In this document: piece by piece, positions 1,227 through 21,848 of the stretch
Numbering within the stretch: the stretch's first letter is position 1
How the letters are laid out: the number at the start of each line of letters is the position of its first letter
NCBI GenBank assembly: GCA_963758105.1
Contig: CAVWUC010000002.1
Location: forward strand, 948,167-1,012,166
DNA: 64,000 nt
Direction: 5' to 3'
From: an uncultured Acidobacteriaceae bacterium
GTDB lineage: Bacteria; Acidobacteriota; Terriglobia; Terriglobales; Acidobacteriaceae
Made by a program: the position numbers and the translations under genes
The notes under the pieces: generated by a model
What the model saw: only the letters and a program-made list of their open reading frames with translations
Database searches by the model: none
What the model was told of the DNA's origin: nothing

Positions 1227-1338
1227 TTAGCTATTAGCTCTTAGCCGTTAGCTGTTAGCTTCTTCTTGCTCGCCGGAGCCGCATCATCGAACCTGCGGTA
1301 CAGCGGAGCTAAGGGTTAACAGCTAAAAGCTGAGAGCT
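1227..1338. repeat. Heptad-phased AGCT palindrome, copy 1 (rpoB|rpoC spacer)
   Basis: Left arm TTAGCTATTAGCTCTTAGCCGTTAGCTGTTAGCTTC (1227-1262). Right arm AGCTAAGGGTTAACAGCTAAAAGCTGAGAGCT (1307-1338). AGCT cores recur every 7 nt; spacers are T-rich on the left arm and A/G-rich on the right. Confidence 0.8.
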
Positions 1339-1343
1339 TGCTG

Positions 1344-4300
1344 TTAATCCGCCACCGCGGCTACCTCCGGCGCGGGCAGTTTCTTGATCAGGTCCGCGCG
1401 CTTGATCAGTTCCACATCCAGGCAGAGCGACTGCAGCTCGCGGATGAGCACGTTAAAGGACTCGGGCACGCCGGGCTCGATAGCCGCCTCGCCCTTGACG
1501 ATGGCCTCGTAGATCTTGGTGCGGCCAAAGACGTCGTCGGACTTGGCGGTGAGCAGCTCCTGCAGGATGTAGGCGGCGCCGTACGCTTCCAGCGCCCAAA
1601 CTTCCATCTCCCCGAAGCGCTGGCCTCCGAACTGCGCCTTGCCGCCCAGCGGCTGCTGCGTGATCAGCGAGTATGGCCCGATCGACCGCGCGTGAATCTT
1701 GTCGTCGACCAGGTGGGAGAGCTTGAGCATATAGATGTAGCCCACTGTGACCGGCTGCTCAAACTGTTCGCCGGTCATGCCGTCGTAGAGGGCGGTCTTG
1801 CCCGAAGATGGCAGGCCGGCCGAGGCCAGCAGCGCCTTGATCTCGCTCTCCTGCGCGCCGTCAAATACATTGGTGCCGAACCAGATGCCGCGCTTCATGC
1901 CGGCGGCGACCCGCAGCAGCATCTCGTCGTCGAGCTCCAGCAGCTGGCGCAGCGTTGCGGTTCCGGCAAACTCCTTCTTCATCAGCTCGCGAACGTAGCT
2001 GGCGTCGCTGCTGCCCTTGATGAGCTGAGCGACCTTGCCCCCCAGCTCGTGCGCGGCCCAGCCCAGATGCGTCTCCAGAATCTGGCCCACGTTCATGCGC
2101 GACGGCACGCCGAGCGGGTTGAGCACGATCTCAACCGGAGTTCCGTCGGGCAGGTAAGGCATATCCTCTTCCGGAAGAATGCGCGCGATCACGCCCTTGT
2201 TGCCGTGCCGGCCGGCCATCTTGTCGCCGACGCTCAGCTTGCGCTTCATGGCGACGTAGACTTTCACCAGCTTGATGACGCCCGGCGGCAGCTCGTCGCC
2301 CTTCTGCAGCTTGAGCACCTTCTCGTTGGTAATCTTGCGCAGGACTTCGATCTGGCGCGAGGTCATCTCCTCGATCTCGTCGATCTGCTCGTTCACCCGC
2401 GGATCCTTGTCGTTGTAACGGATGCGCTTCAGGTTGCGCGTCGCGATACGCTCGATCGACTCGCGGTCCAGGATGGTCCCTTTGGTCAGCAGGCGCTTGT
2501 TGGTGCGCTCGTCGTGCAGGTCGGCCTGCACTTCCTTGCCGCCCAGGATGCCTTCCAGGCGCTTGAGGCGCTCGTCGGTGAGAATGCGAATCTCGTCGGT
2601 GAGGTTCTTTTCGAGTTTGGCCACGTACTCCGCCTCGATCTGCTTGGCGCGCTCGTCCTTCTCCTGCCCCTTGCGGCTGAAGATGCGCACGTCTACCACC
2701 GTCCCCTCGATGCCCGGAGGGCAGGTGAGCGAGGCGTCGCGAACATCGCCGGCCTTTTCGCCGAAGATGGCGCGCAGCAGCTTCTCTTCCGGCGTTAGCT
2801 GCGTTTCGCCCTTGGGCGTCACCTTGCCCACCAGAATGTCGCCGTGGCCGATCTGGGCGCCGATGCGGATCACGCCGCTCTCGTCCAGGTCGCGCAGCGC
2901 ATGCTCGCTGACGTTGGGAATGTCGCGGGTGATCTCCTCGGGGCCGAGCTTGGTGTCGCGGGCCTCGATCTCGAACTCCTCTATGTGCACGCTGGTGTAG
3001 TAGTCGTCCTTGACCAGCTTTTCGCTGATCAGGATGGCGTCCTCGAAGTTGTAGCCGCGCCAGGGCATGAAGGCAACCAGCACGTTGCGGCCCAGCGCCA
3101 GTTCGCCCTGCTCCGTGCAGGGGCCGTCGGCGATCACCTGGCCCTTGAGCACCCGCTCGCCCTCGCGGACCACCGGCTTCTGGTTGATGCACGTGTTCTG
3201 GTTCGACCGCTTGAACTTGATGAGCTGGTAAATGTCCGAGCCAACCTCGCGCGAAAGCTGGGTGGGATGATGCTCGCCCTCGACGCGCACGATGATGCGC
3301 TCGGAGTCCACCGAGTCCACAATGCCGTTGCGCTTGGCCAGGATCACGGCGCCGGAGTCGCGCGCGGTCACGCCTTCCATGCCGGTGCCCACCAGCGGCG
3401 CTTCGGCCACCAGAAGCGGCACCGACTGGCGCTGCATGTTGGCGCCCATCAGCGCGCGGTTGGCGTCGTCGTGCTCCAGAAACGGAACCAGTGACGCGGC
3501 CACCGAGACCAGCTGCTTCGGCGACACGTCGATGTAATCCACCTCCGCCCGGTTCACCAGCACGAAGTTGCCCTGCCGGCGCGCGTTCACCAGATCCTCA
3601 GTGATGTTGCCCTTCTCGTCGAACTCGATGTTGGCCTGGGCGATGGTGTGCTTGTCCTCTTCCCAGGCGGAAAGATAGAAGCTGTAGGGAATGTGCTCGA
3701 TGAGCCGCTTGCCCGCCTTTTTAAGGCCGGCGTTCAGCCGCTCGGCTTCTTCCTTTTCGATGTGGTCGCCGACTCGCATGCCGCTCTCGCCGGCGTTGAC
3801 GATCTCCACGAAGTTGAGAATGCGCGAGTCCTTCACCTTGCGGTAGGGCGACTCGATAAATCCATACTCATTGATGCGCGCGAAGCACGACAGCGAGCTG
3901 ATGAGGCCGATGTTCGGACCCTCCGGCGTCTCGATGGGGCAGATCCGGCCATAGTGGGTGGGATGCACGTCGCGCACCTCAAAGCCGGCGCGCTCGCGGC
4001 TCAGGCCGCCCGGTCCCAGGGCCGAGAGGCGCCGCTTGTGAGTAATCTCCGAGAGCGGATTGGTCTGATCCATGAACTGCGAGAGCTGCGAGGAGCCAAA
4101 GAACTCGCGGATGGCCGCCATCACCGGCTTGGCGTTGATCAGGTCGTGCGGCATGGCTGTGTTCAGCTCCTGGTAGACGCTCATCTTTTCCTTGATGGCG
4201 CGCTCCATGCGCACCAGGCCGATGCGGAACTGGTTCTCCATCAGCTCGCCCACCGCGCGCACGCGCCGGTTGCCCAGATGATCGATGTCGTCCACCATGC

Positions 4301-5831
4301 CGATATTGCGGCGCAGCTTGAGCAGGTAGCGGATGGTCGCGTAGAAGTCCTCCGGCGTCAGCGTCCGGTGATCCAGCGGCGTGGCGTCCTGGTTGTCGTA
4401 GAGCTTGATGTTGAACTTCAGTCGGCCCACGCGCGAAAAGTCGTACTTCCGCGGGTCGAAGAACATGCCCTCGAACAGCGACGTGGCCGTGTCCAGGGTG
4501 GGTGGATCGCCGGGGCGCAGCTTGCGGTAGATCTCGATCAGCGCCTCTTCCGGCTTGTGGATGGAGTCGCGCCGGAGGGTGTTGGAGATGATGTTGCCCA
4601 CGTCGTCGCGCTCGGGAAAGAAGACCTCAAAGCTGCTGACCCCGCCGGCCATCACCTTGTGCAGCCGGTCGGCGGTGAGCTCCACATTGGCCTCGACGAT
4701 CACCTCGCCGGTCTCGGTATTGACCACCTCGGACGCGGTGAGGGCGCCGTCCAGCTCGGCCGATTCCACTTCGATCTTCTGGATGGCGGCCGCGCGGATG
4801 GACTTCAGGGTGTGGAGCGTGATCTTGCGCCCGCCGTGGGCGATCTCCTCGCCCTTGCTCACAATCTTGTGCGCGGGCTTGGCGCCGACCAGGTGGGTGG
4901 CGACGTGCGCGTCCTGCGGGACGATCCACTCCAGCTTGCCGTCGGCAATCTCCAGCCGGTCGACGGTGTAGAAAGTCTTGAGAATCTCCTCGTCGGAGCG
5001 CAGCCCGAGAGCGCGCAGGAAGATGGTGCCCAGGAACTTGCGCTTGCGGTCGATGCGCACATACAGCGTGTTCTTCTGGTCGTACTCGAACTCCACCCAC
5101 GAGCCGCGGTAGGGAATGATCTTGCCCAGGAAGTAGGTGCGGTTGTTGGCCGTCTCAAAAAAGACGCCGGGGGAGCGGTGCAGCTGCGAAACGATCACGC
5201 GCTCGGTCCCGTTCACGATGAAGGTGCCGTTGGGCGTCATCAGCGGAATATCGCCGAAGAACACCTCCTGCTCCTTGATGTCGCGGATCGACTTGGTCCC
5301 GGTCTCCGGGTCCTTGTCATATATAGTGAGCCGCACTGTCACCTTCAGCGGAGCCGAGAAGGTCATGCCGCGCTCCTCGCACTCCTGCTGGTCGTACTTC
5401 AGCTGCAGGCTCACCGGGTCGCCGCACTTGTTGCAGAAGTCGGGCGTGTTCTTGTTGTAGGTGCCGCACTTCTGGCAGAGCACGTCGCCGGGCAGGAAGG
5501 GATCGGTGATCACCATCGCGCCGCAATGCGAGCAGGCGGTGCGCAGGTGATGCAGGCCCTTCAGATGTCCGCACTTGCACTCCCAGTTGCCGATCGAGTA
5601 GTCGACAAAGTCCAGCTGCGAGATGGAGCGGAAGTCGGTGATGGGGAAGACCGACACGAAAACCGACTGCAGCCCCGAGTCGTCCCGCTCGTTGGGCAGC
5701 TTATCCATTTGCAGGAAGCGCTCATAGGAGCGGCGCTGGACTTCAATCAGGTTCGGAATCTGGGTGGTGGTGGGAATCTTGGAAAAATCGAGCCGGCTGC
5801 GGATCGCGCGCTTCTCGTTGGGCATGATCAC
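1344..5831 (-). CDS. rpoB: DNA-directed RNA polymerase subunit beta (1495 aa, with lineage-specific insertions)
   Basis: ORF-track protein has canonical beta motifs ([86 protein letters not shown]). Conserved position between rplL and rpoC. Confidence 0.99.
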
Positions 5832-21447: not shown

Positions 21448-21529
21448 GTGGTATACGGTCTCCCAAGGAGATTTGATGAGCCTCAGATAAGTGGCCAAAG
21501 CGCCGAACAACCAATAGAAGCGATCATCC

Positions 21530-21637
21530 ATGAACATGCTGCTTAACATCATGCTGAAACCGGCATCTTTGATCGTCCTGGGAGTCGTAGGCTTTTTCTT
21601 CTTTTTCGCGATGGACAGGCTCCCAAAATCAAAGTAG
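21530..21637 (+). CDS. Possible 35-aa hydrophobic single-pass peptide
   Basis: My own translation: MNMLLNIMLKPASLIVLGVVGFFFFFAMDRLPKSK*. Lies 83 nt after the 105-aa ORF in the same low-GC patch. Weak SD; coding status unproven. Confidence 0.3.
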   Translation: MNMLLNIMLKPASLIVLGVVGFFFFFAMDRLPKSK

Positions 21638-21774
21638 CCCACCAGCCACATCCCGCCACCAGCCCCGCAATCCACCCATTTCCCCGCGCTCCGCCGCCTG
21701 CGCCCCGCATCATTTCATCCCCCCGCTTGCAGATAATTACCCCCGCCTCGCGCACAATACTCCCAGCAAGACTT

Positions 21775-21848
21775 TTAGCGATCAGCTTTCAGCTCCCACT
21801 TGCGGCGAGGAACCGAACGCTGAATGCTGAGAGCCGATAGCTCACGGC
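21775..21848. repeat. Heptad-phased AGCT palindrome, copy 9 (right edge of the low-GC islet)
   Basis: Left arm TTAGCGATCAGCTTTCAGCTCC (21775-21796). Right arm GCTGAGAGCCGATAGCTCACGGC (21826-21848). More degenerate than the other copies. Confidence 0.65.

Follow-up and report, generated by a model that had tools for sequence, protein, structure and literature searches.

We present here a family of intergenic inverted repeats, built from tandem 7-nucleotide (nt) units, in the genome of an uncultured Acidobacteriaceae bacterium. The DNA analyzed, hereafter the window, is a 64,000-nt stretch of contig CAVWUC010000002.1 (assembly GCA_963758105.1, positions 948,167 to 1,012,166 of the forward strand) with a G+C content of 63%. 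Its left 22 kb form a translation cluster on the minus strand, in the order tRNA-Thr(tgt), tRNA-Tyr, orf99, tRNA-Thr(ggt), tRNA-Gly, orf102, tuf, rpmG, tRNA-Trp, secE, nusG, and rplK; ~5.5 kb of unrelated genes follow, and then rplA, rplJ, rplL, rpoB, and the start of rpoC, again on the minus strand. The other 42 kb carry ordinary metabolic genes, such as those for polyphosphate kinase, glycosyltransferases, and RND efflux proteins. A preliminary description had listed nine palindromes of AGCT heptamers in the left part of the window; all nine are present, and two period-7 arrays without AGCT units (7827-8010 and 19007-19045) had been missed.

The arms of the elements comprise 3 to 6 units and lie 8 to ~90 nt apart, the stems measure 21 to 35 bp, and whole elements span 60 to 165 nt. 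All 32 AGCT/+7/AGCT pairs in the window fall inside the nine loci (~1.7 expected), and the pattern AGCTNNNAGCTNNNAGCT, three AGCT phased by 7 nt, has 15 matches in the window versus 0.01 in dinucleotide shuffles. A sequence-agnostic period-7 detector returned 18 arrays in 1 to 22 kb and 2 weak matches, both in GC-rich coding sequence, in 22 to 64 kb. Period 7 gave 11 to 18 arrays in the window, of which at most 2 lie outside the nine loci and the two added arrays. As controls, periods 5 and 6 gave 5 to 28 scattered matches, and periods 8 to 11 gave 0 to 5. On the sense strand, eight of the nine copies fold better than dinucleotide shuffles (z scores of −3.2 to −8.1), the exception being the copy between rplJ and rplL. 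The "flavor" of the arms, which had been described as shared by the two arms of a locus, is indeed closer within a locus than between loci (0 of 20,000 permutations reached the observed value); the own partner arm ranks first in only 2 of 10 loci, so the flavors fall into groups, in line with the preliminary description. Independent assemblies from ENA, NCBI, and JGI contain the same elements, which excludes an assembly artifact.

Conservation and covariation

The relatives compared comprise five syntenic loci and 80 metagenome loci around orf102. L001 is an 867-kb ENA metagenome contig that encodes the window's L11 protein and is 99.3% identical to the window; the heptamer elements of the two are identical. 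Phase-variation-like hypervariable copy number is excluded, the arrays being identical in near-identical strains (the window and L001; the L125 and L126 spacers). The nusG|rplK spacer is occupied in all six sequences available. Most of the 73 orthologous tRNA-Thr|tRNA-Gly spacers consist of 4 to 5 tandem heptamers, an inner region of ~45 nt, and 4 to 5 complementary heptamers, and a minority are short and without an element. The heptamer itself varies by lineage (YAGCTNN, CAGTGNN, CAGGGNN, CAGTTCN, CAGAGNN, or CGTGGNN). The initial definition of the unit by AGCT therefore does not hold, since orthologous copies use CAGTG, CAGGG, CAGTT, CAGAG, or CGTGG heptamers; the defining feature is the 7-nt-phased helix and not AGCT.

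An alignment (A3) was made of 50 distinct tRNA-Thr|tRNA-Gly spacers, each 100 nt or longer. Near-invariance in it is limited to A-G of the 5′ arm and C-U of the 3′ arm, recurring every 7 columns. Across its 33-bp helix, 80% of the cells are paired, versus 27 to 44% when the partner is slid by 1 to 3 columns. Double-change cells number 313 versus 141 in shuffles (0 of 500 shuffles reach 313), and compensatory change is found at 23 of the 33 pairs. Within the unit, five positions pair in 76 to 100% of cells and positions 6 and 7 in 46 to 66%. Stem length stays at ~4 to 5 units across every heptamer type, which free simple-repeat drift is not expected to give. Two relatives illustrate the turnover: L125 has CAGGG/CCCTG arms and L150 has CAGTG/CACTG arms around loops that look largely alike by eye, so that the same substitution has spread through all units of both arms. 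As judged from these alignments, the paired state is under selection, and a length-constrained helix survives full replacement of the heptamer in both arms. The view that selection acts on arm pairing rather than on a fixed sequence is thus retained.

A covariance model (R1) was built from A3 alone, that is, from orthologs of the tRNA-Thr|tRNA-Gly locus and the window's own copy. In the 64-kb window, R1 recovers all nine loci at E values of ≤1e-3 and nothing else, the next match having an E value of 0.29; the failure to see copies by eye in 22 to 64 kb agrees with this search, in which R1 finds none there. In four 20-kb relatives, every R1 match lies in the tRNA-tuf-rplK stretch.

Some orthologous spacers depart from the common form. 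In L187 (4031-4152) the element is chimeric, with a CAGGGAT-type 5′ arm and an AGCT-type 3′ arm (GAAGCTGGCGGCTCGTAGCT); arms of such different types cannot pair, and the case suggests that one arm is replaceable on its own. L148, L143, L197, and L154 have short, "empty" tRNA-Thr|tRNA-Gly spacers (e.g., GAAGATCAGCTGTTTT). These resemble a filled spacer minus everything between the outermost AGCT units and are consistent with precise loss.

Elements of the window

The element of the rpoB|rpoC spacer (1221-1350, minus strand) has its sense 5′ arm at 1341-1307 and its 3′ arm at 1263-1229 around a core of ~45 nt, and it starts 2 to 5 nt past the rpoB stop codon (1344-1346). Its fold z score is −3.2, and R1 gives 52.0 bits on the minus strand versus 36.4 on the plus strand. 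In the rplJ|rplL spacer (7114-7274, minus strand), plus-strand arms at 7122-7156 and 7240-7267 flank a long inner region of ~83 nt with an additional internal AGCTTCTAGCT at 7189. This copy starts ~5 nt past the rplJ stop codon and scores 41.3 bits with R1 (E = 2e-11); its fold has z scores of −1.25 (sense) and −2.4 (antisense). The first added array pair lies in the rplA|rplJ spacer (7827-8010, minus strand), with a sense 5′ array of (TAGGGAA)n at 8008-7975 and a sense 3′ array of GATCCCT-like units at 7859-7827. The two arrays are ~60% complementary, the fold is not better than shuffles (z = −0.1), and the R1 score is 8.9 bits (E = 1.8); its membership in the family is tentative.

The nusG|rplK copy (14937-15100, minus strand; arms 14945-14979 and 15051-15085) starts 0 to 2 nt past the nusG stop codon, scores 41.6 bits with R1, and has orthologs in all relatives examined. 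Between rpmG and tRNA-Trp (16173-16290, minus strand; arms 16181-16215 and 16242-16283; z = −4.7; R1, 49.8 bits), the element begins 1 to 2 nt past the stop codon of rpmG and stops 5 nt short of the tRNA. The orf102|tuf copy (17784-17846, minus strand) is short, with 3-unit arms at 17792-17812 and 17821-17841 and a loop of 8 nt (z = −4.7; R1, 21 to 23 bits). In the tRNA-Gly|orf102 spacer (18166-18291, minus strand), arms at 18175-18209 and 18253-18287 flank a conserved core, beginning 4 nt past the 3′ end of tRNA-Gly (z = −7.1; R1, 82.3 bits on the minus strand versus 45.9 on the plus strand). The entire tRNA-Thr(ggt)|tRNA-Gly spacer (18367-18489, minus strand) forms a single hairpin (arms 18375-18409 and 18451-18485; z = −5.8); its R1 score of 92.4 bits is partly so by construction, because this copy is one of the 50 rows of A3. 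The orf99|tRNA-Thr copy (18567-18686, minus strand; arms 18584-18604 and 18648-18682; z = −8.1; R1, 73.5 bits on the minus strand versus 34.1 on the plus strand) contains the orf99 stop codon TAG inside its first unit.

The second added array is a lone 5′ arm, (CAGGGAT CAGGTGT)x2, at 19007-19045 on the minus strand; it starts 3 to 6 nt past the 3′ end of tRNA-Tyr, and no complementary arm was found for it. The 21.8-kb copy (21772-21852, plus strand) is present as reported but lies between two plus-strand genes (21130-21447 and 21877-22275). It is degenerate, with arms at ~21777-21800 and ~21820-21852, fold z scores of −1.5 on the plus strand (sense here) and −3.8 on the minus strand, and an R1 score of 19.6 bits on the plus strand (E = 4e-4).

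An oriented inner core, roughly TGTGCA..GGYGGA..GATGCGGC..GCGC..GGCAGGATGA, is common to the copies of the tRNA-tuf cluster and absent from elements elsewhere; it was therefore left outside the family definition. A search for this core by fuzzy regular expression was dropped after hundreds of chance matches in GC-rich DNA.

Position and distribution

The elements abut the ends of genes. In the window, 10 of 11 arrays begin no more than 6 nt from the stop codon or tRNA CCA end upstream of them, and the distance to the next gene ranges from 5 to ~120 nt, short spacers being filled up to that gene. The same range excludes a Shine-Dalgarno role for the 3′ arm, since the arm-to-start-codon distance varies from 5 to ~120 nt. 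Promoters within the loops were likewise rejected: no sigma-70-like sites were found in 14 to 22.5 kb, and by inspection there is no consistent −35/−10 pair. Among 40 other Acidobacteriota loci returned by a genome-wide pattern scan (described below), the arrays stand in 41 co-directional, 9 convergent, and 1 divergent contexts, and in 18 of the 41 co-directional cases the array begins within 10 nt of the upstream stop codon.

Orientation was at first described as the same on the plus strand in all nine copies. This holds no strand information, because a palindrome with a pyrimidine-spaced first arm reads identically on both strands. Relative to transcription, R1 scores 15 to 40 bits higher on the sense strand for the copies in the rpoB|rpoC, rpmG|tRNA-Trp, tRNA-Gly|orf102, tRNA-Thr|tRNA-Gly, and orf99|tRNA-Thr spacers, and sense exceeds antisense by the same margin in all orthologous loci. 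Part of this preference stems from the oriented inner core of the tRNA-tuf cluster copies. Among independent elements, R1 is higher on the sense strand in ~27 of 34 and opposite in 7 (hand tally). The sense-strand fold is the more stable one in 197 of 206 orthologous spacers, and a strand-symmetric alignment of the arms of the orthologous cluster holds 245 G·U pairs versus 130 A·C.

The 22-kb translation cluster contains every array of the window, and in four relatives all 33 period-7 arrays lie in the 4.8-kb tRNA-tuf-rplK stretch. The other 42 kb of the window hold no element, though they offer ~10 co-directional or convergent spacers of 60 to 280 nt. A genome-wide scan for five phased AGCT units returned 120 loci, ~45 of them from Acidobacteriota. 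Eight of the 120 are in translation operons, six of these in Acidobacteriota: four in S10/spc/alpha operons (L038, L055, L116, and L119), one in rplKAJL-rpoB (L041), and one in a tuf-S10 region (L097). The other two are in alpha-operon regions of a "Deltaproteobacteria" metagenome-assembled genome (L080) and of Ferruginibacter, Bacteroidota (L089). With an expected share for translation operons of ~0.5% of the genome, itself a rough estimate, 8 of 120 is a strong excess. The confinement to translation genes noted earlier is accordingly true of the window and the four relatives but not of the class, as copies elsewhere also flank genes for ATP synthase, NADH dehydrogenase, ABC transporters, MacB/FtsX, and aconitase as well as dcw-cluster and trp/aro genes. 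Adjacency to tRNA genes is not a general rule either: 4 of the 120 loci carry tRNAs, none of them next to an array.

Loop-less AGCT-heptamer palindromes stand directly after the infA and rpoA stop codons in L089 (4515-4555 and 7583-7614) and L080 (5838-5890).

Proposed role

From the observed structure, conservation, covariation, position, and enrichment, we infer an RNA-level role, and with it the kinds of enzymes that may act on the elements. The reading we favor, which on sequence evidence we hold as plausible and short of probable, is that they are transcribed, REP-like (repetitive extragenic palindrome) intercistronic RNA hairpins, which in highly expressed operons insulate and protect the units and assist in their processing. 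In a polycistronic precursor, each spacer would fold into a helix of ~30 to 35 bp with a weak position every 7 bp, formed by 3 to 5 tandem units per arm of the type Y-A-G-N-N-n-n (5′) and n-n-N-N-C-U-R (3′). Such a helix would insulate adjacent cistrons and tRNAs. The upstream RNA would gain a 3′-terminal hairpin against 3′ exonucleases, and RNase III or RNase E-type enzymes may take the helix as a double-stranded substrate or as a boundary when they separate the units by endonucleolytic cleavage. The predicted outcome is that highly expressed translation operons yield units that are discrete and stable. The arms would evolve through unit slippage and homogenization while selection keeps pairing and total stem length.

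Several observations weigh against this reading. DNA hairpin-templated correction alone could maintain arm complementarity without any RNA function. The periodic weak pairing at unit positions 6 and 7 is not predicted by a simple stability model. The excess of G·U over A·C seen in the orthologous cluster is absent from the window's nine copies (18 versus 16) and from 21 independent AGCT-type elements (33 versus 38), in which the sense fold is the more stable one in 11 cases versus 10. Where the G·U excess exists, it is mostly 5′-arm U opposite 3′-arm G, which C-to-T change of the non-template strand, coupled to transcription, would also bring about. As the data sets conflict, the comparison of G·U with A·C is not treated as decisive. 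The element is missing from given spacers in some relatives and is thus dispensable at individual sites, and shared phylogeny among the orthologous sequences inflates the p-values.

Some of these points would fit an unlikely but serious alternative, in which the elements are self-perpetuating by-products at the DNA level. Heptamers born by slippage would become palindromic through template switching or fold-back at AGCT or CAG|CTG, hairpin-templated repair would keep the arms complementary, and copies would accumulate, with no dedicated function, in tolerant non-promoter spacers where transcription exposes single strands. The absent strand asymmetry in the nine copies and the 21 independent elements is in line with this account, as are Mrazek's slippage explanation for heptamer excess (as cited in PMC4692102), the presence of arrays of this kind across many phyla, some of them long, plain tandem runs of 10 to 23 units, and loop-less perfect palindromes centered on AGCT (L035/L054, L080, and L089). 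So are the variable presence among relatives and near-precise empty sites such as that of L148. It accounts poorly for positions conserved across genera despite sequence turnover, for the tight hold of the arms at 4 to 5 units, and for a copy number constant between near-identical strains. The orientation signal relative to transcription, the placement tight against upstream stop codons, and the empty 42 kb of ordinary genes with ~10 suitable spacers also speak against it.

The RNA hairpins that we favor are distinct from classical intrinsic terminators, in agreement with the preliminary description. Such terminators have a short G+C-rich stem, a loop of 3 to 8 nt, and a U tract; the stems here are 21 to 35 bp and the T runs 3 to 5 nt. 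A terminator scan of 14 to 22.5 kb gave no site at any element on the transcribed strand and 8 sites in total versus a shuffle mean of 9.2. One match overlaps an element, at 14957-14978 inside the nusG|rplK copy, on the plus strand and hence antisense. The statement that no U tract follows the elements needs one amendment, as T runs of 3 to 5 follow five of the nine copies on the transcribed strand.

It is very unlikely that the elements act as weak intrinsic terminators or attenuators, poor in U tracts, through which the stoichiometry of downstream genes is set. Those sense-strand T runs would suit such a function, as would the GTTTT conserved 3′ of the tRNA-Thr|tRNA-Gly hairpin, the 9 convergent gene ends among 51 classifiable contexts, and the precedent of the Escherichia coli rplL|rpoB attenuator. 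The scan result described above, stems of 21 to 35 bp, and loops of up to ~90 nt do not suit it, and the conserved GTTTT pairs with the 5′ flank GAAAT instead of trailing the stem. Moreover, since elements occupy almost every spacer of the ribosomal-protein and tRNA operons, cumulative termination would silence the distal genes.

Relation to known repeats

Heptameric intergenic repeats have been noted since 1990, each report with its own explanation (G-quadruplex, IHF site, or Csp/S1 site); in cyanobacteria, STRR (short tandemly repeated repetitive) sequences were reportedly described by Mazel et al. in 1990. The STRR units CCCCAGT, TTGGTCA, and CAACAGT differ from the units found here. The present elements are an acidobacterial member of this known class of heptamer repeats, to our knowledge undescribed; a literature search found no report of heptamer repeats in Acidobacteria and nothing relevant on REP sequences in that group. 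The inverted heptamer pairs of Geobacter class 3, Xanthomonas, and STRR have at least three tandem 7-nt units per arm, a second, complementary array on the opposite strand at a variable distance, and an intergenic location that is rare between divergent genes and conserved while the sequence varies. All of these features are found here, with inter-array distances of 8 to ~90 nt.

The "class 3 global regulator binding sites" of Geobacter metallireducens (Aklujkar et al. 2009; PMC2700814) are eight pairs of five tandem MTYCTGA units. They share with the present elements heptamer pairs on opposite strands, a variable distance, and intercistronic positions, e.g., proB/proA (PMC2700814), and their CTGA core corresponds to the CUR-containing unit of the 3′ arms here. 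They differ in unit sequence, and the eight pairs, from one genome, were read as IHF/HU DNA sites, with no covariation, orthology, or link to translation operons shown (PMC2700814). The Xanthomonas GGGAATC and Nostoc GGGGAYT repeats of Rehm et al. 2015 are intergenic heptamer arrays, and 70 to 75 of the ~185 in Xanthomonas are convergent inverted pairs able to form stem-loops (PMC4692102). Between species, they keep their positions but vary in length and sequence; they are rarer between divergent genes, and most are transcribed (PMC4692102). G-rich variants such as CAGGGAT and TAGGGAA occur here and in relatives, resembling the G-rich units of Xanthomonas and Nostoc. The Xanthomonas repeats were read as G-quadruplex formers, with no enrichment in ribosomal or tRNA operons reported (PMC4692102), whereas the AGCT-type units here cannot form G-quadruplexes.

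Cyanobacterial STRR hairpins between hupS and hupL, likewise 7-bp tandem repeats that are intergenic or intercistronic and hairpin-capable, have been proposed to act in transcript stabilization or translational coupling (PMC2670836), and an STRR in RNase P RNA is credited to Vioque 1997 as cited in PMC4046671. STRR sequences are limited to heterocystous cyanobacteria and are usually described as single arrays. MacGregor 2015 reported TAACTGA direct repeats in Beggiatoaceae, cyanobacteria, and Bacteroidetes, a distribution that crosses phyla (PMC4679880). Their heptamer contains CTGA, and copies stand inside ribosomal-protein operons and before fusA, pnp, and the S1, S4, and L3 genes (PMC4679880). 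They occur as 169 direct sets versus 1 indirect set, just upstream of start codons, with single-strand binding proposed (PMC4679880); the arrays here, in contrast, come in pairs and lie directly against the upstream gene's end.

That resemblance bears on a further alternative, one we regard as improbable: that the arrays form a binding platform for a protein able to read the 7-nt register, with YAG/CUR as the contact, in single-stranded RNA (a cold-shock-domain, S1, or KH protein, as suggested for the TAACTGA repeats) or in DNA (a nucleoid protein or gyrase, as suggested for the Geobacter sites and for REP-type elements). A-G and C-U are near-invariant every 7 nt amid otherwise variable positions, which pairing by itself would not call for, and unit positions 6 and 7 are periodically weak or unpaired. 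The CTGA/CTAG/CTAA motif recurs in the Geobacter MTYCTGA and Beggiatoaceae TAACTGA repeats, and MacGregor proposed S1, Csp, or CsrA binding for the copies in ribosomal-protein operons (PMC4679880). However, successive duplex sites spaced by 7 bp would fall on different helical faces, and an array for single-strand binding has no need of the strong compensatory covariation, which indicates that the paired state matters. Some orthologs (L152 and L206) use CGTGG units without CAG.

A broader proposition, distinctly improbable in our estimate, combines such a register with an RNA function: a cross-phylum RNA module whose YAG/CUR register would be read by a conserved RNA-binding or -cleaving factor coordinating the processing, stability, or translation of translation operons (those for ribosomal proteins, EF-Tu, RNA polymerase, and tRNAs). 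If true, this would be an unrecognized post-transcriptional layer of ribosome-biogenesis control and would account for why heptameric repeats are, as has long been noted, in excess in the intergenic DNA of bacteria.

REP sequences and bacterial interspersed mosaic elements (BIMEs) are extragenic, transcribed palindromes between co-directional or convergent genes. For the intercistronic hairpins proposed here, they are the best functional analogy, being considered to stabilize upstream mRNA and to bind gyrase or IHF (PMC3733652, in part). In identity the two differ. REPs (PMC3733652) are imperfect palindromes of 20 to 40 bp that share a consensus across the family and carry a GTAG or CGTC head, with a link to REP-associated tyrosine transposases (RAYTs). 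The elements here are 60 to 165 nt long, have heptamer-phased arms without a fixed sequence, and conserve only A-G/C-U every 7 nt. Reading through the sequences and the alignment shows no evident GTAG or CGTC head, no search aimed at the head having been made, and no RAYT (IS200/IS605-like Y1) gene is among the gene calls of the window and ~30 kb of the source contig. The earlier failure to recognize a REP/BIME family is therefore borne out as to REP and Rfam, but the architecture itself has been described in Geobacter, Xanthomonas, and cyanobacteria. Rfam returned only tRNAs at the gathering threshold, and a scan of 1 to 22.5 kb at E values of ≤1 added two chance-level matches.

Other repeat classes were rejected as well. 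CRISPR (clustered regularly interspaced short palindromic repeat) arrays have repeats of 23 to 47 nt and unique spacers of similar length; here, the units are contiguous 7-nt heptamers in inverted arms, and the original exclusion of CRISPR stands. Miniature inverted-repeat transposable elements of the Correia/NEMIS kind, dispersed as near-identical copies bounded by terminal inverted repeats and target-site duplications, do not match, as the arm sequences differ between copies and the flanks (GAAAT...GTTTT) lack a direct duplication; orthologous copies that change their arms in situ round loops conserved by eye also contradict that assignment.

What is new relative to these reports is the covariation evidence, the turnover of heptamers round a fixed helix, the tight placement at the 3′ ends of genes, oriented with transcription, and the concentration in translation operons of several phyla. 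Selected pairing, gene-end position, and translation-operon concentration together make a testable hypothesis of RNA punctuation in highly expressed operons, and A3 and R1 can now be used for a census.

Other features of the locus

In the 3′ arms (e.g., 18253-18287 and 18648-18682), most AGCT-type units carry CTGA, CTAG, or CTAA (by eye, uncounted), which places a stop codon roughly every 7 nt. Three consecutive units of this kind put stops in all three frames and, by symmetry, on the other strand too; in the non-AGCT heptamer types, only some units carry one. These stop codons could be incidental or could halt read-through ribosomes.

The rplL|rpoB spacer (5832-6618, minus strand; 787 nt) has neither a heptamer array nor a convincing open reading frame. 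The corresponding spacer of E. coli holds an attenuator and an RNase III site. Between rplK and rplA, the region 8794-14490 encodes NicO-like, PilZ-domain, and DnaJ-domain proteins on both strands, and relatives have other unrelated genes after rplK (patatin and spermine synthase-like). This lineage therefore has a split L11-L1 operon. For the protein encoded at 26723-28060, a database look-up gave no record.

The gene orf102 (17846-18154, minus strand) encodes a 102-amino-acid hypothetical protein and always lies between tRNA-Gly and tuf. The protein has no Pfam match and has 1,729 homologs at E values of ≤0.001; the best 120 of these, the window's own sequence aside, are 70 to 79% identical to the window copy, and the named ones among them are from Terracidiphilus sp. 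An alignment of 20 sequences has 51 invariant columns.

The 139 differences between the window and L001 all lie, but for three, within 19400-20800 and 24000-24800, a mosaic pattern that could reflect recombination or strain mixing in assembly. Many metagenome contigs among L128 to L207 stop 200 to 600 nt past the downstream end of orf102, at or close to the orf102|tuf spacer and the tuf start; these ends are probably assembly breaks at a duplicated tuf or at the repeat. Upstream of tuf, the sequence TTTTTGGGGCTGGAGCCGG..GCCGGCGCCCCGAG..GCAGTA..GAAAGGGATT..CTTTT is conserved in the window (17708-17790, minus strand) and in L123, L125, L143, L156, and L194. It is kept with or without a preceding heptamer hairpin, has its own GGGGC/GCCCC stem, and could be the tuf leader or promoter region.

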